Part shown: positions 14,393 through 50,068 of the stretch, piece by piece
Layout: every line of letters begins with the position of its first letter
How positions within the stretch are numbered: the stretch's first letter is position 1
Position numbers and translations under genes: made by a program
Notes under the pieces: model-generated
Told to the model about the DNA's origin: nothing
The model's database searches: none
What the model saw: only the letters and a program-made list of their open reading frames with translations
Source: Clostridiaceae bacterium
GTDB lineage: Bacteria; Bacillota; Clostridia; DUPQ01
Direction: 5' to 3'
Length of the DNA: 64,000 nt
Assembly (NCBI GenBank): GCA_012729955.1
Contig: JAAYBX010000025.1
Span: forward strand, 45,168-109,167

Positions 14393-14468
14393 AGGGAAGT
14401 AGTTCAATCGGTAGAGCAGCGGTCTCCAAAACCGTTTGTTGCGGGTTCAAATCCTGTCTTCCCTGCCA
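14393..14468 (+). tRNA. trnW: tRNA-Trp (anticodon CCA)
   Basis: Manually folded cloverleaf. Acceptor stem AGGGAAG/CTTCCCT, anticodon stem GCGGT/ACCGT, loop CTCCAAA, T-loop TTCAAAT, encoded CCA end. Confidence 0.85.
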
Positions 14469-37419: not shown

Positions 37420-37548
37420 ATTGGAACTTATCAAGAGTGGCTGAGAGACTGGCTCAATGACGCCCGGCAACCTGCAATGTAAAGGTGCTAATTCCAAACA
37501 GATGAGGTAATAACAGGTCTCATCAAGAGGCCTTTTTTATAGCAAAGG
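37420..37548 (+). promoter_or_regulatory. SAM-I (S-box) riboswitch with intrinsic terminator
   Basis: CTTATCAAGAG...GGCTCAATGA...CCCGGCAACC...GGTGCTAATTCC consensus blocks, then GGTCTCATCAAGAGGCC hairpin + T6. Directly upstream of metK. Confidence 0.85.
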
Positions 37549-37557
37549 AGAAATTAT

Positions 37558-38721
37558 ATGAGTTTTAGAAAATTATTTACATCTGAATCAGTAACAGAAG
37601 GACATCCGGACAAACTGTGCGATCAGATTTCTGATGCAATCCTTGACGAGATACTTAGAAAAGACAAACAGGCAAGAGTTGCATGTGAGACAGCAGTAAC
37701 GACAGGATTAATTCATGTGATGGGCGAGATAACTACAGACTGTTATGTGGACATTTCAAAAATTGCAAGAGAGACAGCTCTGTCAGTAGGATACACTAGA
37801 GCAAAATTCGGTTTTGATGGAGAAACTTGCGGGGTCATCACCTCTATTAATGAGCAGTCACCTGACATTGCTATGGGTGTGAACAGTTCATATGACATAA
37901 TTGGAGAACAAGGTGCAGGGGATCAGGGAATGATGTTCGGATTTGCATGTGATGAAACAGCAGAACTTATGCCTTATCCCATACAGACAGCCCACAATTT
38001 ATGCAAAAAGCTTTCAAAAGTCAGAAAGGAGAGTAATCATAAATATCTCAGACCAGACGGAAAAAGTCAGGTTACTGTAGAATATGAAGGATATATTCCC
38101 AAAAGAATTGATACTATTGTATTATCATCTCAGCACAGTGATGAAATATCCATTGAAGAATTGAGAGAATACTTGACAAAAGAGGTTATCATGCCAGCAG
38201 TCGATAAAGATATGATAGACAGTAAAACCAAGATTTACATTAATCCGACTGGGAGATTTGTTATCGGAGGGCCTATGGGTGATTCCGGATTAACTGGCCG
38301 AAAGATAATTGTTGATACATATGGAGGTATGGGGCGTCATGGAGGAGGTGCTTTCTCAGGTAAAGATCCTTCAAAAGTGGATCGCTCTGCAGCATATGCT
38401 GCAAGGTATGCAGCGAAAAATGTTGTTGCAAGCGGTATAGCGAAAAGATGCGAAATCCAGATAGCATATGCAATAGGTATGGCACGGCCAGTCTCTGTTG
38501 TGGTGGATACATTCGGAACTGCTTTAATTGATGATGAGCTTATAGCAAAAGCGGTGATGCAGGTATTCGATCTTCGACCACATTCAATTATAGAATCGCT
38601 TGATCTTAAGAATCCTATTTACAAGCAGACAGCAGCATATGGGCACTTTGGAAGATCTGATTTGAATCTGCCCTGGGAGAAGACTGACAAAGCGGAAATT
38701 TTGAGGGACATGCTTAAATAA
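37558..38721 (+). CDS. metK: S-adenosylmethionine synthetase
   Basis: 387 aa. [19 protein letters not shown]; GGGAFSGKD. Confidence 0.95.
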
Positions 38722-38806
38722 AGTATTCATGTTGAGTTAAAAAAAGTATTATAAAGACTGCCAATGCAGTCTTTACTTATATATAAAAATAACATATAAT
38801 GTCAAT

Positions 38807-39379
38807 ATGGATGCTATTATTCAATACATATTTCCAAATGAGAAATATGAGGATATTGAAAACCTTATTTTTAAGCCATATATAAAGGATAATCATATTT
38901 ACTTTACTGAGTATAATGACGTAATATATTCAGTAATCAAATACGCTAAATATACGAAGCATCCTGCTTCATTTGTTCAAATAGGCCGAAAAATTGGAGA
39001 AATTGTAAAAGAAATTGGATTACAGGCTGATTTAATAATTTATGTCCCGATGTATATTACTGATCAGAAGAGACGCGGTTTTAATCAATCAATGATATTA
39101 GCCGAACAAATATCCAGATATACAGACATAGAAATATGCCATAAAGCATTAAAAAAAGTAAAGAAGACAAGAAATCAGGCGTCACTGAATGCACCAATGA
39201 GATCAGTTAATCTTCATAATGCATTCATTGCTGATGACAGATACACAACAGGAAGGAGGATAATTCTTGTTGATGATATATATACGACTGGTACTACCCT
39301 GAACGAATGTAAAAAAGTCCTAATGGAAAGTATGGCTGATTCTGTAATTTATATCACTGTAACAAAAAAAAATATATAA
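38807..39379 (+). CDS. ComF-family phosphoribosyltransferase-fold protein (ComFC-like, no N-terminal zinc finger)
   Basis: PRTase motif RRIILVDDIYTTGTTLNE. 190 aa, shorter than canonical ComFC. Confidence 0.65.
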   Translation: MDAIIQYIFPNEKYEDIENLIFKPYIKDNHIYFTEYNDVIYSVIKYAKYTKHPASFVQIGRKIGEIVKEIGLQADLIIYVPMYITDQKRRGFNQSMILAEQISRYTDIEICHKALKKVKKTRNQASLNAPMRSVNLHNAFIADDRYTTGRRIILVDDIYTTGTTLNECKKVLMESMADSVIYITVTKKNI

Positions 39380-39386
39380 TTGTATA

Positions 39387-39414
39387 TTGACAATAAATGT
39401 AAATATAATATTAT
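39387..39414 (+). promoter_or_regulatory. Sigma-A promoter for the Tad locus
   Basis: TTGACA - 16 nt - TATTAT, then strong RBS AAGGAGG before the 39436 ATG. Confidence 0.5.
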
Positions 39415-39435
39415 GTATCTACACAAGGAGGAATA

Positions 39436-40806
39436 ATGTTTTTCAGTGAAAGATACAAGATTATACAGCCATTGCTTAAGAATTCAAGAGAAGCAAAATA
39501 TCTTGTGTTTGATGAAATAGATAAGTGCAAAAAGGTAATAAGCGAAAAAAGCAGCAAATCCGAAATGGAATCTGATATTGAACAGTTATCAAAGATTGAG
39601 CACATAGGAATACCTAGAATTACCGATTATTTTAAATTTAATGATTGTTGCTGTATAGTACATGAGTATATTGAAGGTGAAACATTAAAAGAATACATAG
39701 ATAAAAAGGGAGTTATGGATTTATATGAAGCATTAGATATATTTGTAAAGCTTCTTCACACTGTTAAGTTTCTCCATGATATAAAACCTGTCGGTATAAT
39801 TCATGGCAATATACATCATGATAATGTTATTCTGATTGAAGATGATGTCTATTTAACAGATTATGGCATCAAGGATGAAAACAAGAATCCATATCAAGCA
39901 CCTGAATCAATATTGGGAGTGAAGAAAAGCAAACAGCAGGATATATACTCATTGGGAATGCTTTTTAACTATATGATTACGGGAAGTTACAAAAAGCCTG
40001 GATATTCAGAAAAAAACGTAAACATCACAGATTCACTGATTATCAGAAGCACTAGTGCTAATTTTAATAATCGCTTTGAAGATACCGGCATAATGATTAC
40101 TGAGTGTGAAAGACTGATAAGGAATTTGTCATGTAATTCATCAAAACCAAATTCAAAAATAATCGCCATAAATGGCAGTCATGAAGCAGTTTTTGAATTC
40201 GCAAAATACTATAGTAAAGCTTCATCAGATAATACCTTAATTATTGATGCTGATATTCTGCATCCTTCTTTCGAATCCGATAATTATATTCTGAATGAAG
40301 ATATACAAAGCATGATGGATAAAGTTGATAAAGGAGAAGATATAGAAATATCATTTAAAAAAGCTAAAGCTTGTTCTAGGGTATACATAATACCTAGCAT
40401 TATCCGGATAGAAGGATATGAAAATATTACATTTGCTTCATTCTATAATCTTCTAATCAGATTAACTGAGGATTTTAACTTGATATTCATAAAATGTTCA
40501 GATTTCATCTATGATTCACTGGCAATAAATACATACATTATTTCTGATCAGATAATCCATATCATGTCTGATCCTTTAGCTGATATTAAGCTGTTTAATA
40601 AAATTAGCGAATATCTTTGTTCCAGACATGACATTGATAATCAAAGATTCAATGCATTTATTTATAAGGAGAAAACAAAAAATATCATAGCTGCTGGGAT
40701 AAAAGAAAATCTTTTAGGTGAATACCTAGGCTCAGCAAACAGTCAGAGCAGACTGTATGCAAAAGATTTAATGAATATAGCAAATAAGATAAGGAGGAAA
40801 CTGTAA
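39436..40806 (+). CDS. Fusion protein: N-terminal Hanks-type Ser/Thr (pseudo)kinase domain + C-terminal degenerate ParA/MinD-like TadZ/CpaE domain
   Basis: Kinase subdomains are visible: hinge IVHEYIEGETL, catalytic loop HGNIHHDNVIL (HRD->HGN), DYG, APE, DIYSLGMLFNYMITG. There is no Gly-rich loop. The C-terminal half, KIIAINGSHEAVFEF...LIIDADILHPSF, aligns to a ParA deviant-Walker-A region but lacks GKT. Confidence 0.65.
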   Translation: MFFSERYKIIQPLLKNSREAKYLVFDEIDKCKKVISEKSSKSEMESDIEQLSKIEHIGIPRITDYFKFNDCCCIVHEYIEGETLKEYIDKKGVMDLYEALDIFVKLLHTVKFLHDIKPVGIIHGNIHHDNVILIEDDVYLTDYGIKDENKNPYQAPESILGVKKSKQQDIYSLGMLFNYMITGSYKKPGYSEKNVNITDSLIIRSTSANFNNRFEDTGIMITECERLIRNLSCNSSKPNSKIIAINGSHEAVFEFAKYYSKASSDNTLIIDADILHPSFESDNYILNEDIQSMMDKVDKGEDIEISFKKAKACSRVYIIPSIIRIEGYENITFASFYNLLIRLTEDFNLIFIKCSDFIYDSLAINTYIISDQIIHIMSDPLADIKLFNKISEYLCSRHDIDNQRFNAFIYKEKTKNIIAAGIKENLLGEYLGSANSQSRLYAKDLMNIANKIRRKL

Positions 40807-40807
40807 T

Positions 40808-42001
40808 ATGGCTGTACTTAAAAGCTTATCATCTTTAAATGATGAATTCGACAATAACAGATATGCAAAGGGCAGTTACCCTTTATCAAAAGTTGTTACT
40901 GATGTTACAAAAGAAATATTGAGTGTTTCACCTGAACTTGTAGTTAATGCATATTATGATAACAAGCAAAGAAGCTTTTTAGAGAACAGGATTTTAAACA
41001 TATTAGATAAACAGCAGTATTTTGCTATCGGGTCTAAAAGAAAAATGATAAAGAGCGTATTTGATTTTATGTTCGGATACGGGCAGCTTCAGGAATATAT
41101 AGAAGATGATGATATCACAGATATTGACGGAGTACGCTTTGATTGTTTTTCCATTACAAAAAACGGAGTTAGGATGCCTGCTGATATTAATTTTAACACT
41201 GAGACAGATTTATATGTTTATTGTAAATTAGTTGCTTTAAGAAATGGGGGCATACTTAACGAAAATGACAGTCATTGCAGGGTAGCTGATATACAGAACA
41301 AACTGCGTATTAACATATCTATATATCCAAGAAATATATCCGGTCCTGCAATTTCCATCCGAAAACATAGAAAATCCGCATACACATTGAAAAATCTGAA
41401 TGAGCTTGGGATGTTGGATAATATAAGTACAGATATATTAAAAAAGACTTTATCAACGCGTCATACCATAATACTGTGCGGAAAAGGCGGTTCTGGAAAA
41501 ACAACTTTACTTAGAGCTTTGATTAATGCGCTTCCTGATATGGAAAGAGTGCTTATAGTCGAATCAGATGCGGAAATTTATCCTGACAAGAAGTATTGTA
41601 TAGAACAGAGAGTGAAAAGAGATAATGAAGGAGGCAATCCAATTACTCTTGATATGCTGATAAAAGACGGTCTGACTATGTCACTTGACACATATTGCAT
41701 TGGTGAGATTGTAGGAAGCGAAGCAATGGCATTTTTAAATGCATGCTGTTCTGGACACAGATTTTTAACTACAATGCATGCTGATAAGCCGCAGGACTGT
41801 GTTAAGAGGCTTATTGCTCTGGCTAAGGGAGCAAAAGGAATTAGTGACGAAAAAATGCTTTTAACCCTGTATGGAGAAGGTGTCGACTGTGTGGTCTTCA
41901 TGCAAAACTTCAAAGTAACCAGAATAATGTATGTTAAGGGAATGGATTCTGCCAATAATGCTGTAGTTTATGAAGATGCATACATAAGGAGCCTAGAATG
42001 A
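40808..42001 (+). CDS. tadA: Tad/Flp pilus assembly ATPase CpaF/TadA (VirB11 superfamily)
   Basis: Walker A ILCGKGGSGKTT. GEIVGSEAMAFLNACCSGHRFLTTMHADKP is diagnostic for CpaF. Confidence 0.9.
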   Translation: MAVLKSLSSLNDEFDNNRYAKGSYPLSKVVTDVTKEILSVSPELVVNAYYDNKQRSFLENRILNILDKQQYFAIGSKRKMIKSVFDFMFGYGQLQEYIEDDDITDIDGVRFDCFSITKNGVRMPADINFNTETDLYVYCKLVALRNGGILNENDSHCRVADIQNKLRINISIYPRNISGPAISIRKHRKSAYTLKNLNELGMLDNISTDILKKTLSTRHTIILCGKGGSGKTTLLRALINALPDMERVLIVESDAEIYPDKKYCIEQRVKRDNEGGNPITLDMLIKDGLTMSLDTYCIGEIVGSEAMAFLNACCSGHRFLTTMHADKPQDCVKRLIALAKGAKGISDEKMLLTLYGEGVDCVVFMQNFKVTRIMYVKGMDSANNAVVYEDAYIRSLE

Positions 42002-42795
42002 TTTATCTGGTTATCAATGTAATATTCTTTACGATTCTTGTTTTCTTCTTGAAAAAGAAGGGTATAAAGTATAATTTCAAATTTATATATAATAACCAGC
42101 TCGGGAAGATTATCATAGTTTTATGTATGGTCATATTTGTAATACTAGGTGTAATAATTAATAAAAATCTCAATAATCCTGTTACCAGTTTCTGTATTTC
42201 ATTAATGCCGGCTTTTATCCCATATCTAGTATATGATCTTATTAAAAGTTCTGTCTTTACAAAGGAGAAGGAAAGCATAACATCCCTGCTTATGGTGCTG
42301 ACTAAATGGAGCGCAGTAAGAAATGATGCCGTATACTGCCTTCAGAAAACGGATGAGACAAAATTATCAAAACCTATTGGCGGATATATCAAGGATATAT
42401 GCATACGGCTTGAAAAAGGGATGAGTGTTTCTGAAGCACTGATAGCTTGTGAAAAGACTGTTTTAAGCGAAGAACTTCGTTATGTATTAATAAATATAAG
42501 ATATGCATATGAAAAAGGCGGAAGTCTTTACAGGATATTCAAAAGCCTGGAAAACCAATTTTTTAAAATCGACGAAGAGAATTTTAAAAGAAGAATTAAT
42601 ACCGCATCGGATAAATATGCTGTATATATTTCAATAATCATGGTTATGGCTACTTTTTACATGGTTGTACTTAATAAAGGGCAGTCAAGCAGATTTTACC
42701 TTAACACAGATACAGGAATGATATTGCTAGGAGTATTTGCAGGCCTTTTCTTTATAGGAATTATGATTATAGCGAAAGTAATCAAGAGGTATTAG
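41998..42795 (+). CDS. tadB: Tad pilus inner-membrane platform protein TadB (T2SSF domain)
   Basis: 265 aa. TM-helical with GspF-like domain. ATGA overlap with tadA. Confidence 0.7.
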   Translation: MIYLVINVIFFTILVFFLKKKGIKYNFKFIYNNQLGKIIIVLCMVIFVILGVIINKNLNNPVTSFCISLMPAFIPYLVYDLIKSSVFTKEKESITSLLMVLTKWSAVRNDAVYCLQKTDETKLSKPIGGYIKDICIRLEKGMSVSEALIACEKTVLSEELRYVLINIRYAYEKGGSLYRIFKSLENQFFKIDEENFKRRINTASDKYAVYISIIMVMATFYMVVLNKGQSSRFYLNTDTGMILLGVFAGLFFIGIMIIAKVIKRY

Positions 42796-42796
42796 A

Positions 42797-43588
42797 ATGA
42801 TTGAATGGATGAGAAATCTAATCTATATTGGTAATTTTGGTGTCGGTATTCTTTTTGCTTCACATATCGCATGTATGAAATTACATGAACGTGAAGGAAA
42901 AACAAAAATAAACAGAGTTGAACATATAGTTAATGGGTATTTATTAAAGATTTCTGAAAAATTTGGTATACCTTCAGAAAAAACAAAGGAATTTGCGAGC
43001 CTTATATTGTTTTTCATAATCTTATGCCTTTTAGCAGCTATAACATCAGGTATATCCAAAGCACTTATCATATTAGTGCCTTGTATCATATGTATATTCA
43101 TTACTAAGAAAGTATGGGAAAAAAATATAAATGATATGTTTCAAAAGAATGCCTATAAGCTATATCGGTATCTGATTTCTCAGATAATAGCAGGAGTAAA
43201 ACCAAAAGATGTGATTATAAATATGTACAAGATAACAGAAGACAAAAGTTTAAAGAAAATTCTCACAAAGGCTTCTGCAGCGTATTCAATAACACTTGAT
43301 GGGAAAACATATTCAGATGTAATAAAAGCATCGATTAAGACTGAAGACGCAAACAGATTTTGTATGATTCTAGAAGAGGATCTTTTATATACCGATAATG
43401 AGGAATTTTTGGAAAAAATGGAAGAAATGATGTTCAACAGACATTTTTCTTATCATCAGAAAAGAACAGACAGTATAAAAAAAGGCTGCTTCGCGGCAGT
43501 ATGCGTATTCATGCTTATCGTGATAATCATGGTAGCTCTGCCGCTTATGAATGAGCTTGTGCAGGGGCTCAAATATATATTTTTATAG
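42797..43588 (+). CDS. tadC: Tad pilus inner-membrane platform protein TadC (T2SSF domain)
   Basis: 263 aa, same architecture as TadB. Starts 2 nt after the tadB stop. Confidence 0.65.
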   Translation: MIEWMRNLIYIGNFGVGILFASHIACMKLHEREGKTKINRVEHIVNGYLLKISEKFGIPSEKTKEFASLILFFIILCLLAAITSGISKALIILVPCIICIFITKKVWEKNINDMFQKNAYKLYRYLISQIIAGVKPKDVIINMYKITEDKSLKKILTKASAAYSITLDGKTYSDVIKASIKTEDANRFCMILEEDLLYTDNEEFLEKMEEMMFNRHFSYHQKRTDSIKKGCFAAVCVFMLIVIIMVALPLMNELVQGLKYIFL

Positions 43589-43597
43589 GAGGAGAAA

Positions 43598-43789
43598 ATG
43601 ATAGTTAACAAACAAAACAAAAGAGGATTCGGTGTTTCCGAAATTATCGGAATAGCGACGGTGTTAGTAATTGCAGCTGCGGTTGTAATACCTGGACTAA
43701 GAGAAATTGCATCAGACATAATAACTTCTACCAAAACATGGGTAGGAACAAGGATGTCTGAGATTTTCGAAGTATCTTCAGGAACCTAA
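43598..43789 (+). CDS. flp: Flp/type IVb prepilin
   Basis: 63 aa. Leader MIVNKQNKRG, then FGVSEIIGIATVLVIAAAVV (Glu at +5) hydrophobic helix. Strong AGGAGG RBS. Confidence 0.8.
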   Translation: MIVNKQNKRGFGVSEIIGIATVLVIAAAVVIPGLREIASDIITSTKTWVGTRMSEIFEVSSGT

Positions 43790-43798
43790 CAAACACAT

Positions 43799-44173
43799 AT
43801 GGCTGAGAAGATAATTATTAGCATAATCACTTTACTCATAATACTGTGCATATTCGCTTATTTTGTGGATGTCCTGACAGTTATATCAAAAAATATGGAA
43901 TTTCATGATATATGCAGAGGATATATGCACATAGCTGAACAGAATTCAGGATTAAGTTATGAACATAAGTTAAGTATGATGGATAATCTTATTTCCAGGG
44001 GCTTTGATAATGTTGTAATCTCAGCCCCTGCATCAGCCATGTATGGAAGCATGTTTAACCTGGATATTCAAGCATCATATGAAGTTAATATGATAACAGA
44101 TGTCTTTACTTGGAATTCGCAGGAGTATGTGATGCATTTCAGTCAGAACATTACAGCAAGAAGGATCTATTGA
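43799..44173 (+). CDS. TadE-like pseudopilin/minor pilin
   Basis: 124 aa. N-terminal TM helix, small secreted domain. In Tad operon position. Confidence 0.55.
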   Translation: MAEKIIISIITLLIILCIFAYFVDVLTVISKNMEFHDICRGYMHIAEQNSGLSYEHKLSMMDNLISRGFDNVVISAPASAMYGSMFNLDIQASYEVNMITDVFTWNSQEYVMHFSQNITARRIY

Positions 44174-44174
44174 G

Positions 44175-44630
44175 ATGAATTTGAAGAAGAAGGGGACAGG
44201 AATACCGGAAGTGCTTGTATGCGTTTTTATACTTATTTATATAATGCTTCCCCTCTTTTGTTCCACTGTTCATAAAGCAATGTTTTATCATCAAGCAGCC
44301 AAAATTGAGCAGGCTGTTGAAATGGCAGTCATATCATTGATAAATGAAAATAGTACTCAAATATTTTCTTTTGGTTTTATTGAATTACAGGCTGATGAAC
44401 AGCAGCTTAAGTATCTGGTTTCTAATGAAATATCTAAAAGCTGCATCAGTTCGTTAAGCGTAAATGATGATGATATATATATTTCTGTGATTGAAACAGG
44501 TAACAGATGCAGCTGCGGAATATATAACGAACACTTTATGATTTCAGCGGATATAACTGCAACATTAGATTTTCTAGGACAAAGACAGTTTGAAGTTCAT
44601 AAACATGTCGAATTTCCAGTTATAAGGTGA
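44175..44630 (+). CDS. TadE/TadG-like minor pilin with prepilin-type leader
   Basis: MNLKKKG/TGIPEVLVCVF gives a G-cleavage site with Glu+5. 151 aa. Confidence 0.55.
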   Translation: MNLKKKGTGIPEVLVCVFILIYIMLPLFCSTVHKAMFYHQAAKIEQAVEMAVISLINENSTQIFSFGFIELQADEQQLKYLVSNEISKSCISSLSVNDDDIYISVIETGNRCSCGIYNEHFMISADITATLDFLGQRQFEVHKHVEFPVIR

Positions 44631-44676
44631 TTATACATATTTAAAATGTAAATTAGCAGAAAGTATTAGGAGAAAT

Positions 44677-45294
44677 ATGAAAAGATATAAATACTATATA
44701 TTAGCGGGCATATTTGCCATCTTTCTTACAATATTGCAGATATTCATATCCAGATCATTTATTGAAAAGGATAAAGGGTATGTTTTCATAGCGGAAAGAG
44801 CGATATTAAAAGGAGAGCATATTAAGGAAGAGGATGTGAAAAGAATACAGGTATATGGAATATCATCAACATTTACTATCGATGAGAATAAAATATGTAT
44901 TAATGATATTCAGGAAGGAACCATACTGGCAAATGAGATGCTATGTGATATGCCGCCTGAAAAAGATTTACGAGTAATATGCCTGCCTGTAGATAAAAGC
45001 AGATGTCCTTTTGCAATACTGTCTTCATCAGATACTATCAATGTCTTTATAATGCCTGATAACAAATCGATAAGCATATATGAATCAGCATGGCTGGATA
45101 AAGTACTAAAAGAGCTTGGTATTTCATATGATAGTGAAAGTGATATAGGGTTCATGATTGAAAATCTTGAAATAGCTGATCTGGGAACTTATGAAAGCTC
45201 AAATTACTCTATTAGCATAAAAGTACCAAAGCTAATAGATAAGCTTTTTGCATTTATTAAAGGACATTGCACGATAGAGATTATACTGCCTTAA
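44677..45294 (+). CDS. cpaB: Flp pilus assembly protein CpaB/RcpC-like (SAF domain)
   Basis: N-terminal TM, then SAF-like region VFIAERAILKGEHIKEEDV. Confidence 0.6.
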   Translation: MKRYKYYILAGIFAIFLTILQIFISRSFIEKDKGYVFIAERAILKGEHIKEEDVKRIQVYGISSTFTIDENKICINDIQEGTILANEMLCDMPPEKDLRVICLPVDKSRCPFAILSSSDTINVFIMPDNKSISIYESAWLDKVLKELGISYDSESDIGFMIENLEIADLGTYESSNYSISIKVPKLIDKLFAFIKGHCTIEIILP

Positions 45295-45363: not shown

Positions 45364-46185
45364 ATGGATAAATACTACGAGAGCTTACTCAAGTCAGTTG
45401 AATATATTAAATCGAAAATCAAAGATAAACCTGTACTCGGTATAGTGCTGGGTTCCGGTCTTGGTATGCTTGCATCACATATACAGGACAGGATTGAATT
45501 AGATTATCATGAGATACCGAATTATCCTGTATCAACCATTCCTGGACATGCTGGGAAATTAATATTTGGTTATCTTAGCGGTAAATATGTAGCTTGTATG
45601 GCAGGCAGATTTCACTATTATGAAGGATACGAAGCAGAACAGATACATATCGGTGTACGGACTTTTAAGCTGCTGGGTGCAGATGGAGTTATAATAACCA
45701 ATGCTGCAGGAGGGATAAACACTGCATTTAAAGAAGGAACTATAATGCTCATAAATGACCATATAGGTTTTATGGCACCATCAGCTCTTAGAGGACCAAA
45801 TATAGATATGCTCGGTGAAAGATTTTTTGATATGTCTAAGGTCTATGATAAGCAATACCTTGATACAGCAAGAAATGTCGCTAAAAAGATAGGACTTGAT
45901 GTTAAAGAAGGTGTTTACATGTTCTTCAAAGGACCTAATTTCGAGACTCCTGCGGAAATAAGAGCTGCAAGGATTCTAGGCGCAGACGCAGCGGGAATGT
46001 CTACTGTCCCTGAGGTTGTGGCTTGCGCTCATTGCAATCTGAAAGTGCTTGGCATGTCCGTTATAACCAATATGGCTGCCGGTATTCTGGATAAGAAACT
46101 TAACCATGAGGAAGTTATGGAGACAGCAAATCGTATACATGAAACATTTATCGAATATGTTAAACAGATAGTTAAGGAGCTATAA
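45364..46185 (+). CDS. punA: Purine nucleoside phosphorylase I (inosine/guanosine)
   Basis: Start set at ATG after the GGAGGAG RBS. PNP family I motifs (GSGLG, MSTVPE). Confidence 0.88.
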   Translation: MDKYYESLLKSVEYIKSKIKDKPVLGIVLGSGLGMLASHIQDRIELDYHEIPNYPVSTIPGHAGKLIFGYLSGKYVACMAGRFHYYEGYEAEQIHIGVRTFKLLGADGVIITNAAGGINTAFKEGTIMLINDHIGFMAPSALRGPNIDMLGERFFDMSKVYDKQYLDTARNVAKKIGLDVKEGVYMFFKGPNFETPAEIRAARILGADAAGMSTVPEVVACAHCNLKVLGMSVITNMAAGILDKKLNHEEVMETANRIHETFIEYVKQIVKEL

Positions 46186-47430
46186 ATGGAGTATGAAATT
46201 AAGGATCTTTCATTAAAGGATATTGGAAGAGAAAAGATAGAATGGATTAAGGATTTTATGCCTGTTCTTTCTTCAATTGAGAAAGAACTTATTGGTGAAC
46301 AGCCTTTAAAAGGGATAAAAGTAACAATGGCTCTTCATCTTGAAGCAAAGACAGCTTATCTGGCAGTTGTAATGCATAATCTTGGAGCACAAGTCAGAGT
46401 AACAGGAAGCAACCCTCTTTCCACTCAGGATGAAATAACTGCAGCGCTTGTAGATATCGGAATATCTGTATTTGCTTATAGGGGAGTGGACAGTGAGACA
46501 TATAAGAACCATCTTGTAAAAGCTCTTGCCCATAAACCGAATATAGTCATAGATGATGGAGCTGATCTTGCACACACTTTACATAAGCAGCATCCAGAGC
46601 TTATGGCTGATGTTTATGGCGGATGTGAAGAAACCACAACAGGTATAGTGCGTCTTAAAGCTATGGATAGTCAGAAGATTCTGAAGTACCCTATGTTCGC
46701 GATTAATGATGCTGATTGCAAGCATTTATTTGATAACCGGTATGGTACAGGCCAGTCCTCACTTGAAGGTATTATGCGTGCGACCAACCTAACACTTTTT
46801 GGCAAGAAGCTAGTTGTAGCTGGTTATGGGTGGTGCGGTAAAGGAATAGCATCAAAAGCAAAAGGGTTTGGAGCTAATGTGATAGTTACTGAAGTTGATA
46901 CTATAAAAGCCTTAGAAGCTGTTATGGATGGATTTGATGTAATGCCCATGGATCAGGCAGCTAGGATAGGTGATATTTTTATTACAGTTACCGGTAATAT
47001 TGATGTGATTACAGAAAAACACTTTTTAAATATGAAAAATAATGCGATATTATGCAACGCAGGGCATTTCGATTGTGAGATATCCATGAATCAACTCAAT
47101 AAGATTGCTGTCAAACAGGAAAAGAGAAGAAATGGGGTTGCTGGATATTATCTGAAAAACGGTAATGTTATAAATGTTCTTGGAGAGGGAAGACTGGTTA
47201 ATTTGGCATGCGCAGACGGGCATGCTGCAGAAATAATGGATATGAGTTTTTCTCTGCAGCTTCTTACTGCATTACATATATTAAAGAACAGAGGCAAGCT
47301 TGAGAACAAATTGTATAATGTTCCAGCCAGTATCGATAGGGCTGTAGCTGAAGCGAAACTGAAATCAATGGGAATCAGTATTGATATACTTTCAAATGAA
47401 CAAAAAAAATATTTAGAGAGCTGGGAGTAA
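46186..47430 (+). CDS. ahcY: Adenosylhomocysteinase
   Basis: 414 aa. NAD-binding GYGWCGKG; typical SAHH N-terminus. Confidence 0.92.
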   Translation: MEYEIKDLSLKDIGREKIEWIKDFMPVLSSIEKELIGEQPLKGIKVTMALHLEAKTAYLAVVMHNLGAQVRVTGSNPLSTQDEITAALVDIGISVFAYRGVDSETYKNHLVKALAHKPNIVIDDGADLAHTLHKQHPELMADVYGGCEETTTGIVRLKAMDSQKILKYPMFAINDADCKHLFDNRYGTGQSSLEGIMRATNLTLFGKKLVVAGYGWCGKGIASKAKGFGANVIVTEVDTIKALEAVMDGFDVMPMDQAARIGDIFITVTGNIDVITEKHFLNMKNNAILCNAGHFDCEISMNQLNKIAVKQEKRRNGVAGYYLKNGNVINVLGEGRLVNLACADGHAAEIMDMSFSLQLLTALHILKNRGKLENKLYNVPASIDRAVAEAKLKSMGISIDILSNEQKKYLESWE

Positions 47431-47431
47431 G

Positions 47432-49099
47432 ATGAAATTTTCCGTAAAAGACAGAATTATACCTTGCCCAAAAAACATAAAGGCAAATGAGAGTTTTACT
47501 TTCTTCAGGAACAGGACAAAAGTCATTCTTAAAGCTGAGAAGTCACCAATTTTATCGAATGCATATGAAATGCTTAATTCCTTATGCTCTGATGGGTACA
47601 TCAATCCGGATTTTATAATTACATTAAAAAAGATTGATGAGTATTATGAGTATAAGGAACTGGAAAAATGCATTAATAAGAAGCAGGCATATATTATAAG
47701 ACCTGTCATTAAGGATAAAATATTTGCTGGTCTTGATCTTATGGCATACACTGATGTCGGGTTATATTATGCATGTACAACACTATACCAGACAATCATA
47801 CAGATTTCTGATAAGGAAATTGAAATACCGGTTTTAGAAGTATCTGATTGGCCTTCAATAGAGTACAGAGGAATGTTTTTAGGAGACTATATCAAATGTC
47901 TTCCATATACGTCAATGCTGAAACTTAATGCACTTGATTATGTATATAATACTAAGAACAAGGAGAAAGAAAAGGAGATTTATTCAGATTGCGATAGATA
48001 CGGTATTACTCCTTTCAGTGCTGTTTTTGAATGGGAGGATCCTGCAGAGATTTTTGAAAAACTGTACAAATCTGAACATAAGAATAATCTGTTGTTTTGG
48101 ATGAATGAGCAATGGGATGAAGCTGAGCTTTATTATGAGACAACGAGGATACTGGATGCTTTTAATGCATATAGTAAAGAAGATAATCAGTTGGAAGCAG
48201 GAATTATTACCAATTTCAAAGGGGATAAGACATTTGACAGGATTTTTAATCAGCCACTGCCAAATAACTTCTCAATCTCTTACTGCGATAAGACAAAGAC
48301 ATATAATACTGATGTAAGAGAAATTACAGATGCATCTATTGCTGCATTTGCAAAAAACAGTGGTAAATTCGGTATATATCCCATGATAGCTTTTGATATA
48401 AATACATTCTTCTTATGGACATCACCTGAATTTATTCAATTCAGATGTGCGGAATTCGACAGGATTAAAGCTCATAAGGTTATGGGTTATACCCCATATG
48501 CATGTTCATTCTTGAAATTTAATATTTCAGCATTTGCAGAGTGGTTATGGAATCCCAAAGGCAGAAATACCATAGACTTTATAAAAGCTTATGCTTACAG
48601 GGAAAACTTAGATTATGATAAATACGAAAATATGCTATATTATCTTACATTTGCATCCTGGTCATTACAAAGAAGCAATTTCGTACAGTGTCTAAATGAG
48701 GAAACTGTTGATTTTAAAAAGCTTAAAAAACTATCACGGCCAAAGCAGATGGCAAATGATGCTCAAAGAGCATCGAAATACGCACAGCTGCTTGAGAATC
48801 CAATTCTGATAAATGAAACTCAAGCTACATATTCAGCAATCATAGCGTATGATCTCACAAAAAAACTGCTAAGGCTTTCATCTCTGAAAAAACCAAACAG
48901 GAGGAAATACCTTATCTGCAGGGAAAAACTGGATGAAGCATGTAAATCCGTTTATACAAGCCTTATGGGTTGGGCAGAACATATGAAGAAGGAATCCGGA
49001 GCATATGACACATATATTCATGAAACTGCTAAGGCTTTTTTGCATCTTCCATCCATTTTTAATAAATTTGAATCTGAAAGTATTAAAGCATCTGAATAG
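47432..49099 (+). CDS. Hypothetical protein with GH20-like (beta-hexosaminidase-like) N-terminal motif, probably non-canonical
   Basis: VSDWPSIEYRGMFLGD resembles the GH20 DxPRFxYRGxMLD start of the catalytic barrel. No H-x-G-G-D-E seen. 555 aa. Confidence 0.4.
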   Translation: MKFSVKDRIIPCPKNIKANESFTFFRNRTKVILKAEKSPILSNAYEMLNSLCSDGYINPDFIITLKKIDEYYEYKELEKCINKKQAYIIRPVIKDKIFAGLDLMAYTDVGLYYACTTLYQTIIQISDKEIEIPVLEVSDWPSIEYRGMFLGDYIKCLPYTSMLKLNALDYVYNTKNKEKEKEIYSDCDRYGITPFSAVFEWEDPAEIFEKLYKSEHKNNLLFWMNEQWDEAELYYETTRILDAFNAYSKEDNQLEAGIITNFKGDKTFDRIFNQPLPNNFSISYCDKTKTYNTDVREITDASIAAFAKNSGKFGIYPMIAFDINTFFLWTSPEFIQFRCAEFDRIKAHKVMGYTPYACSFLKFNISAFAEWLWNPKGRNTIDFIKAYAYRENLDYDKYENMLYYLTFASWSLQRSNFVQCLNEETVDFKKLKKLSRPKQMANDAQRASKYAQLLENPILINETQATYSAIIAYDLTKKLLRLSSLKKPNRRKYLICREKLDEACKSVYTSLMGWAEHMKKESGAYDTYIHETAKAFLHLPSIFNKFESESIKASE

Positions 49100-49789
49100 G
49101 TGAAGAAGCAACTTTTTTATATATCTGTAATACTGGTAATGTTATCGCTGTTTTGCTCATGTAATAATGAAGAACAATCTTACCTTGTTTATGATGATTC
49201 ATTACAAGGCCGGGAACTTGTAGATTCAATCGTTCAGAATGTGCCAAAAAGCATATATATTGAAATGGAGATAAAGGTTCAGGATTCAGTCTCAGATATG
49301 ATACTTGCAAAACACAATAATATAGTAATGACCAAATCATCATTATCTGATGATGTGAATGTAATAAGCATATATGACTATTCTGCTAAAAAGGCATTCC
49401 AATATTTTGAAGGAGACAGTCTAACAGATGAAGAAAAAACTTATGGGATGGAACTGTCGTTAACCGAGGATGAGATTGAAAAGGGAATTGATTATCACTT
49501 TAAGACATTGGATGATATCGGTGAAGTAGTTGAAGCTTATGAAACCGAATATAATTCCAAAAGAGCAATATATATTAAAAGCAGCTATGATTATGAAGGT
49601 TCATCACTGGTATTTGAAATATACCTTTCCACAGACTATTCATATCCTTTATATATGCTTAGCTCTGTAGATGGAAGCGATACAGTAGAGATGATAATTA
49701 AGAATATTGATACAGAATACAGATTTTCCGATACTTTTCCAGATATTCCTGAATATATCCATTTCATTGATTATGATGATTATGAGTAA
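49100..49789 (+). CDS. Putative lipoprotein (acidic, unknown function)
   Basis: Signal peptide with LFCSC lipobox. Asp/Glu/Tyr-rich mature part. Confidence 0.5.
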   Translation: MKKQLFYISVILVMLSLFCSCNNEEQSYLVYDDSLQGRELVDSIVQNVPKSIYIEMEIKVQDSVSDMILAKHNNIVMTKSSLSDDVNVISIYDYSAKKAFQYFEGDSLTDEEKTYGMELSLTEDEIEKGIDYHFKTLDDIGEVVEAYETEYNSKRAIYIKSSYDYEGSSLVFEIYLSTDYSYPLYMLSSVDGSDTVEMIIKNIDTEYRFSDTFPDIPEYIHFIDYDDYE

Positions 49790-49867
49790 TGTGCCTGTAT
49801 TGACATACAATGAATTGATGGTATAATACTCTCAATATGGCGTTACAAGAAGGATGAGTAACATGTA

Positions 49868-50068
49868 TTTTGTGATAAAGAGAGAGGGGAGCGGTGAGAA
49901 CCCTTGCAAGGATATATGTGAAAGCTAGCCTTTGAAGCCTTCCGCAAAACGGAACGTACTCCTGCGTTAAAGGTTTAAGAGCTTTCAAGAGAATGTATTC
50001 TATTATGAAAGAATTTGGGTGGTACCGCGTGATAACTCTCGTCCCTTTACAGGATGGGAGTTTTTTAT
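49868..50068 (+). promoter_or_regulatory. T-box leader (tRNA-Ala-responsive) with terminator
   Basis: Stem I AGAGAG / GGTGAGA elements. Probable GCU specifier (AAAGCUAG). Canonical T-box AATTTGGGTGGTACCGCG, then a terminator hairpin + T7, immediately before alaS. Confidence 0.8.

Follow-up and report, generated by a model that had tools for sequence, protein, structure and literature searches.

Tad pili serve adhesion and biofilm formation and, in some bacteria, DNA uptake; to our knowledge they have hardly been characterised in Clostridia. The hub protein TadZ of described systems binds ATP, has an atypical receiver domain at its N-terminus and retains a Walker A motif of atypical form (PMC6668835, where the Eubacterium rectale TadZ structure of Xu et al. 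2012 is cited). In Bifidobacterium breve, the tad2003 locus runs tadZ-tadA-tadB-tadC-flp-tadE-tadF, that is, a hub followed by TadA, TadB, TadC, a short pilin and two small pilin-like proteins, with no secretin and with the peptidase outside the locus (PMC7979991). The Caulobacter and Pseudomonas systems span two membranes with a secretin (RcpA/CpaC) and TadD. Here we analysed a 64-kb stretch of a Clostridiaceae bacterium contig (JAAYBX010000025.1; "the window" means the whole of this stretch), in which eight co-directional open reading frames (ORFs) at 39436-45294 form a tightly packed operon for a Tad (type IVc-like) pilus, headed by a conserved promoter of its own. They encode, in order, a kinase-like/MinD-like fusion here called KinZ, a CpaF/TadA ATPase, TadB, TadC, a prepilin of 63 amino acids (aa), a DUF4320 protein, a second prepilin-like protein and a CpaB/RcpC protein. 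This is the order of tad2003, again with no secretin and with no peptidase in the locus, and the secretin and TadD of the two-membrane systems are both missing. We hold it probable that the eight genes are one operon for a Tad-type pilus of a single-membrane, Clostridium-like host, inherited vertically and with KinZ standing in for TadZ.

Nine co-directional ORFs lie between metK (37558-38721) and punA-ahcY (45364-47430), the first being a ComFC-like gene and the other eight the pilus operon (Table 1). A preliminary sequence-only reading had outlined a complete Tad/Flp-type locus over 38807-45294, between metK with its S-adenosylmethionine (SAM) riboswitch and punA-ahcY. Both flanks are as described and the claim of completeness is supported by a CpaF-clade ATPase, a platform split into TadB and TadC, a short prepilin with a second prepilin-like protein, CpaB/RcpC and, in the TadZ position, a protein of MinD/ParA fold; the interval has to be shortened, since the Tad genes occupy 39436-45294 and the first 0.6 kb (38807-39379) are the separate ComFC-like gene, which had gone unlisted. 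The packing is as tight as had been claimed, with the correction that an ATGA overlap occurs only once, at tadA/tadB, the remaining junctions being three 1-nt, two 9-nt and one 46-nt spacer.

Table 1. Coordinates of the pilus operon and of its upstream neighbourhood in the window.
Feature	Position	Strand	Remarks
SAM riboswitch	37425-37508		ahead of metK
Terminator-like hairpin after metK	38752-38775	+	10-bp stem, 4 G-C pairs; edge of upstream unit
ComFC-like phosphoribosyltransferase, 190 aa	38807-39379	+	TIGR00201 comF E=5e-30; Pribosyltran Pfam E=1e-8
Sigma-70-type promoter, TTGACA-16-TATTAT	39387-39414	+	between comF and KinZ; followed by AAGGAGG ribosome-binding site
KinZ N-terminal domain, Hanks-type kinase fold with catalytic residues lost	39436-40119	+	Pkinase Pfam E=1e-18
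KinZ C-terminal domain, MinD/ParA fold without Walker A	40120-40806	+	TadZ/CpaE position
CpaF/TadA-type assembly ATPase, 397 aa	40808-42001	+	T2SSE E=5e-25; GEIVGSEA...TTMHA
TadB-like platform protein, 265 aa	41998-42795	+	T2SSF E=9e-9; ATGA overlap with tadA
TadC-like platform protein, 263 aa	42797-43588	+	no Pfam match of its own; identity via orthologues
Major prepilin, 63 aa	43598-43789	+	leader MIVNKQNKRG, mature FGVSEIIGIA..., 53 aa
DUF4320 small membrane-anchored protein, 124 aa	43799-44173	+	DUF4320 E=0.0023, under cut-off
Minor prepilin-like protein, 151 aa	44175-44630	+	KKKG/TGIPEV site; no Pfam family, including no TadE match
CpaB/RcpC-like protein, 205 aa, N-terminal transmembrane helix	44677-45294	+	no Pfam match of its own

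The promoter proposed from the letters alone stood up well: it fits the sigma-70 pattern at 11 of 12 positions and is the top match of this type in the interval 37.3-47.6 kb. Six lineages keep the TTGACA hexamer, the spacing and a TAtnaT -10 element, and because this conservation persists while their synonymous sites are saturated, we take it for the promoter that really drives the operon. The spacer that contains it (39380-39435) is conserved beyond the hexamers in its counterparts in L011, L017, L018, L007 and L008, with the sequence GTATATTGACAAT(A/T)AATG(T/G)AAAT, which could be a candidate operator for some regulator. At the other end of the operon the stretch from cpaB to punA yielded no terminator, and read-through from the pilus genes into punA is therefore possible. 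The longest punA ORF starts at a GTG (45304); the ATG at 45364, giving 273 aa, is favoured by gene calls on identical contigs and by a GGAGGAG ribosome-binding site.

The assembly machinery is of the Tad type. The second gene product, called a CpaF/TadA ATPase in the sequence-only reading on account of its GEIVGSEA...TTMHA motif, is indeed T2SSE/CpaF-like: its top NCBIfam match is the TadA family, at a score under that model's curated cut-off, and its closest solved protein is CpaF of Caulobacter crescentus (E=1e-29), followed by VirB11 (1e-18), FlaI (1e-9) and PilT (1e-6). Its orthologues show no variation in the residues of the Walker A, Asp box, Walker B and His box motifs. The names given to TadB, TadC and CpaB are likewise upheld, TadB through its own T2SSF match and the other two through orthologues, for a significant family match of their own is lacking in TadC, CpaB and the 124-aa protein. 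T2SSF is matched by 21 of 27 TadC orthologues (best E=8e-10), and a profile comparison of the TadC and TadB families with hhalign gives a probability of 87% (E=4e-6) with alignments widened to 27 and 24 sequences; the same comparison from four sequences each gives 0.3% and finds nothing. Orthologues of the last gene match the Pfam models SAF (24 of 28) and RcpC/CpaB (20 of 28), the latter a protein known from Pseudomonas, the window protein itself staying under detection, and a profile of four of them meets the FlgA SAF domain at E=0.011. A sporulation channel of the spoIIIA type, which also has a T2SSE-like ATPase, was considered and rejected: no Spore_III model matches, and prepilins and CpaB are present.

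The major prepilin has the KRG/FGVSE processing site, the Glu at +5 and the small size for which it had been named Flp, yet the family name does not carry over. Neither Flp_Fap (PF04964, tested to E≤1) nor N_methyl in Pfam matches the pilin or the 16 orthologues scanned, and the mature N-terminus, with F1, E5 and P22, resembles that of type IVa pilins, so that the protein is Flp-like only in size (53 aa when mature) and in Glu+5. A motif G/FG.xE[VIL][IL]GIA...IPG, where Flp/Fap pilins have G/XXXXEY, is conserved over about 65 non-redundant orthologues. The best sequence match in the PDB is Geobacter PilA-N, at E≈0.01, with weak similarity also to prepilin-type models. The family comprises at least 449 clusters; among the 120 matches listed, none has a Pfam domain and the source names are all 'hypothetical protein', bar one evident misannotation. 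Pilins of the largest clade (e.g. L077, 13231-13440), for which Geobacter PilA-N is also the best PDB match, have a WW pair that is conserved and an aromatic content of about 10% (F1, F18, F27, W38, W39). The window pilin has three aromatic residues in 53, and the idea of conductive 'e-pili', suggested by the PilA-N match, was dropped for that reason.

The two small proteins that follow had both been read as TadE/G-like minor pilins. For the 151-aa product the prepilin-like site is present and recurs in most of its family: among 64 non-redundant orthologues a Gly at -1 occurs in 54, Lys or Arg at -2 in 49 and Glu or Asp at +5 in 39. The 124-aa product is instead a DUF4320 protein lacking a cleavage motif; 18 of 28 orthologues match that family (best E=1e-5), the N-terminus reads MAEK or MPxK before a hydrophobic helix, and no peptidase site is recognisable in it. 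We found no mention of DUF4320 in the searchable literature. In the 151-aa family, residues ~112-124 hold a Cys motif followed by His, C-S-C-G....H in the window clade and C-P-x-G....(R/K)P..H elsewhere, which could be an extracellular metal site or a disulphide.

KinZ, the 456-aa product of the operon's first gene, had been called a pseudokinase-TadZ. The first half of that name stands. Beyond its Pkinase match, the N-terminal domain has 4eqm (deposited as 'Protein kinase'), StkP and PknA among its nearest solved sequences, and in the window it has no GxGxxG, Ser in place of the β3 Lys and HGN in place of HRD, with the DFG Asp and APE retained; the Gly-loop, the β3 Lys (Ser) and the HRD Asp (Asn or Ser) are lost throughout the window clade. 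All the Hanks hallmarks (LGxGGMGTVY, WAIKE, YRDMKPSN, DFG, APE) are present in 43 of 78 non-redundant KinZ proteins, with Pkinase E-values reaching about 1e-49, and the alignment indicates that the pseudokinase state is a derived one in a family whose members are fusions with a kinase. The entire N-lobe is missing from another clade, and others lack the Gly-loop only. In the N-lobe-less clade (L013, 8769-10001, with L014, L023, L027, L065 and L081) KinZ measures ~400-410 aa and begins inside the kinase domain, the Pfam match starting at profile position 71, and HGD...N and DFG are still present; as far as the alignment tells, this is a second, independent way to a pseudokinase.

The second half of the name does not hold by sequence. 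The C-terminal 228 residues are without a family match, KinZ matches no TadZ or CpaE model of Pfam or NCBIfam, and a Walker A motif is not recognisable in any of the 78 aligned members, the P-loop site, KGGxGK[ST] in ParA/MinD ATPases, reading NGSHEAVFEF in the window and VWDNAEFGCEL in most relatives. What the domain does have is the fold. Its AlphaFold2 model (pLDDT 71.7, pTM 0.76) retrieves with Foldseek ParA 3ea0 (E=2e-7, TM-score about 0.6), MinD (TM-score 0.66), FlhG, FleN and NifH; a profile of 24 KinZ C-terminal domains against PDB sequences returns ParA delta (2e-5), 3ea0 (1e-4) and MinD (3e-4), and a narrower profile of seven window-clade domains returns nothing. Relatives are few, only 132 at E≤1e-3 among 1.84 billion representative proteins, and in some of them the domain follows a non-kinase N-terminal domain of ~150 residues. 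Since KinZ is the first gene, lies directly upstream of tadA and has the MinD/ParA fold of TadZ/CpaE, we regard it as TadZ-like by position and, on sequence criteria, not as a member of TadZ. No paper tying TadZ to a kinase or pseudokinase, or describing a kinase-MinD-like fusion, was found in our literature search, and the word 'kinase' is absent from the type IV filament survey PMC6668835.

Two observations on KinZ relatives may be added. In Lutispora thermophila DSM 19022 (L088, 204-1694) and in P0155 the same MinD-like domain stands behind a non-kinase N-terminal domain of ~150-200 residues that has no Pfam and no PDB sequence match; our impression is that it may be receiver-like, as in canonical TadZ. 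In L077, L069, L033 and L088 KinZ ends in a basic, amphipathic-looking tail (e.g. ...GLIGKFLEWLKSILLRHLARAKSA) that recalls the membrane-targeting helix of MinD/FlhG, and the window tail (40760-40806, ...NIANKIRRKL) is much shorter.

A scan of one genome per species with the TadA alignment, with gene order then established by iterated local hidden Markov models, confirmed 180 loci, of which 80 were fetched. The module is present in at least 180 species-level genomes, with labels that include Acetivibrionales, Hungateiclostridiaceae, Ruminiclostridium and Saccharofermentanales. The 80 fetched are all labelled Clostridia/Bacillota, the one cultured carrier being Lutispora thermophila, and many carrier assemblies apparently come from anaerobic digesters, judged by their names. 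Among these 80 species the eight-gene order is identical in every contig-intact locus. The exact KinZ protein of the window recurs on many contigs with identical neighbours, and relatives with KinZ identities of 75%, 39% and 38%, whose metK is 75-90% identical, show ftsH-metK-comF followed by the eight genes and then, where the contig allows, punA-ahcY. In a neighbour-joining TadA tree of the 80 species the flanking genes follow the clades: one has metK-comF upstream and a methyltransferase and rsmI downstream, another ClpX upstream and an AraC-type regulator downstream, and the largest an α/β-hydrolase, a radical-SAM enzyme and FlgN/FliS upstream and AraC downstream. Flanks that track the TadA tree indicate vertical inheritance, and the comparison argues for an ancient chromosomal module, passed down vertically in this Clostridia radiation, and against a recent island. 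In the clade with intact kinases (e.g. L077 15420-16322, L069 5591-6076, L078 5789-6193) the AraC-family regulator follows the module in 34 loci and FlgN (18 loci) or FliS (6 loci) lies upstream; co-regulation with flagellar genes is possible in that large clade.

The opposite view, suggested by the sequence-only reading, was that a horizontally acquired Tad island had been inserted between metK and punA-ahcY, splitting a SAM-cycle cluster whose members would plausibly have been adjacent. Tad loci are often mobile (PMC6668835), and the AT-richness that had been noticed is real, the Tad genes having a GC content of 0.330 against 0.365 for the other window genes and being, together with comF, the most AT-rich there (0.30-0.35). 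The difference is nevertheless small and lies mainly in codon position 1 (GC1 0.393 against 0.459), with GC at the third position (GC3) of 0.288 against 0.315, inside the window range of 0.237-0.405. No tRNA, integrase or flanking direct repeats were found at the module borders. Above all, the same genes occupy the same place in all relatives found, down to lineages with KinZ at 38-39% and metK at 75% identity, the very observation that the sequence-only reading had named as grounds for giving up the idea, and the flanks co-vary with the TadA phylogeny; punA-ahcY follow the module in the window's own clade only, while metK-comF precede it in several clades, so that nothing shows metK and ahcY ever to have been adjacent. 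We therefore consider an insertion very improbable. Hardly any credence can be given either to a decaying, non-functional remnant, for which one could cite the loss of the kinase catalytic residues and of the ComFC zinc finger in the window lineage, the missing P-loop of KinZ, the missing peptidase, the sub-threshold family scores of several proteins and the four of eight products with no significant Pfam match of their own. The operon ORFs are intact in all lineages, the TadA catalytic motifs are invariant and the promoter is conserved. Purifying selection is evident throughout, every gene having far less non-synonymous than synonymous change: the ratio pN/pS between species is ~0.14-0.46 over the operon, both KinZ domains included and the short pilin gene highest, and within the species KinZ differs from two other assemblies at 19 synonymous and no non-synonymous sites, of which 7 and none fall in the kinase-domain part (39436-40119).

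Two further explanations concern what the filament does. Tad-dependent DNA uptake has been reported (PMC8513845, PMC8467076), and a competence pilus working with the ComFC-like neighbour, on the model of the Tad pili of Micrococcus luteus and Liberibacter, would fit a pilin N-terminus that resembles type IVa/Com pilins. In 15 of the 80 species loci, spread over all three TadA clades, a comF homologue is found no more than a few kb from the module, and its placement takes three forms (upstream on the same strand; behind metK on the downstream side in L079; downstream on the opposite strand in L084). We still judge this unlikely: the other 65 loci have no nearby comF, in the window comF precedes the promoter of the operon, comF stays with metK and not with the module in L079, the zinc finger is lost in the window-clade ComFC, and no other competence gene is adjacent. 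The linkage could be plain old synteny or a hint of a role in DNA uptake. A short pseudopilus driving protein export across the Gram-positive wall, in the manner of type II secretion, strikes us as a distinctly improbable function. Geobacter PilA-N, the pilin's closest solved relative by sequence, is reported to form a secretion-type pseudopilus, and the system is widespread in polymer-degrading Clostridia, going by genome labels; the ATPase, platform and CpaB are however of Tad and not of GspE/GspF type, and no candidate substrate genes are conserved beside the module.

A pilus operon would also need a prepilin peptidase, and its absence here, as the sequence-only reading had it, is borne out. 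No A24-like ORF occurs in the window or in the adjoining 10 kb and about 3.8 kb of DNA past its two ends, and within ±10 kb of the module none was found in 94 related loci, which were screened with a GxGDxK-type regular expression combined with at least three hydrophobic segments. The lone match of that screen was a TadB homologue, a false positive, and two multi-transmembrane ORFs of the window were rejected as an HGSNAT/acyltransferase-like protein and a DUF1189 protein. The absence of a peptidase near the module is a property of the whole family and nothing exotic. In bifidobacteria the tad genes are all clustered save tadV, which is found away from the tad locus (PMC7979991), and some type IV filament systems have a peptidase in common (PMC6668835). 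The G/F...E5...P22 signature and the PilA-N match suggest that the enzyme is probably of the PilD/ComC type, acting in trans from elsewhere in the genome.

With roles read from the protein families, the parts can be put together as follows. The hexameric CpaF/TadA ATPase would dock on the TadB/TadC membrane platform and polymerise the 53-residue pilin once its 10-residue leader has been cut at KRG/F by a leader peptidase presumably encoded elsewhere in the genome and acting in trans. The 151-aa prepilin-like and DUF4320 proteins may be minor or priming subunits, and CpaB/RcpC, anchored by its one transmembrane helix, may form an extracytoplasmic collar. KinZ would replace TadZ/CpaE, its P-loop-less MinD/ParA-fold domain acting as a cytoplasmic docking or positioning hub and its kinase domain as a regulatory or scaffolding module, which would provide phosphorylation control in most relatives and only a scaffold here.

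Several points weigh against this interpretation. The pilin does not fit the Flp/Fap family model. The KinZ C-terminal domain lacks the nucleotide-binding loop that true TadZ/CpaE retain in atypical form, and its equivalence to TadZ is drawn from fold, weak profile matches and gene position. The peptidase search was confined to the window, its flanks and the related loci, and in the related loci it was a motif-plus-hydrophobicity filter and not a profile search. Finally, the pilus is predicted from its genes, and all carriers but one are metagenome-assembled.

As for the neighbouring genes, comF adjoins the operon, ahead of its promoter, and is taken here as a neighbour; the protein scores under the curated cut-off of TIGR00201 (233 bits). 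The N-terminal four-Cys zinc finger is absent from the ComFC of the window (...IFPNEKYEDIE...), L011, L007 and L008, and CxxC...CxxC is present in L022, L025, L026, L043, L060, L067, L079 and L084. The lineage that has lost the zinc finger is also the one in which the KinZ kinase has decayed. On the 3′ side of ahcY follow two conserved proteins without a Pfam family, one of 555 aa (47432-49099), which accompanies the locus in all 12 window-clade loci reaching that far, and one of 229 aa (49100-49789) with a lipoprotein-like N-terminus (...LSLFCSC...). Unrelated to the pilus are a T-box leader 5′ of alaS (49834-50049, Rfam 107 bits) and a single tRNA-Trp (14393-14468) beside a V-type ATPase operon.

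Set beside the described systems, the locus shares the gene order of B. breve tad2003 and departs from it in its parts: the hub is a (pseudo)kinase joined to a Walker-A-less MinD-like domain in place of a receiver-like domain joined to an atypical ATPase, the pilin is not Flp/Fap and carries F1/E5/P22, one of the two 'pseudopilins' is a DUF4320 protein without a cleavage motif, and CpaB/RcpC ends the operon. Compared with TadZ itself, KinZ has a Hanks kinase domain where TadZ has its receiver domain, and no P-loop in any of the 78 members; P0155 and the Lutispora protein, with a non-kinase N-terminal domain of ~150 residues, recall the TadZ-like architecture. We tentatively propose, as a possibility to be entertained more than as an expectation, that KinZ marks an undescribed Clostridial Tad subtype, in which the hub would have swapped its receiver-like domain for a Hanks kinase so that assembly could be gated by phosphorylation from within the machine, catalysis having been lost repeatedly and the scaffold kept, with the window lineage as one natural kinase-dead case and the N-lobe-less forms of L013 as another. 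The pilins of such a subtype would be a short family not described before, resembling type IVa pilins at the N-terminus and assembled by Tad machinery. A kinase in the hub would be a direct, testable link of Ser/Thr signalling to type IV filament assembly, and the gradient from active kinase to pseudokinase offers a natural experiment on the purpose of the domain; public records label the pilin, minor pilin and hub of the module 'hypothetical' or plain 'protein kinase'.

Cytoplasmic Hanks kinases within a machine, in live and dead versions, are found in type VII secretion systems (T7SS), as the EssB/YukC pseudokinase of T7SSb and the TscD kinase of T7SSc (PMC11217815); that is another machine with other partner domains, and the likeness to KinZ is no more than an analogy. 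Geobacter PilA-N and other short type IVa pilins share with the window pilin a leader ending in K/R-G, the F-x-x-x-E start, Pro22 and a length of ~50-60 residues, yet the match is marginal and the window machinery is of the Tad and not the PilB/PilC type. The pilus locus described in TANB77 Clostridia (PMC11680825) differs in architecture from the present module. The module is of a known kind, the Tad pilus, in a variant that appears to be undescribed.

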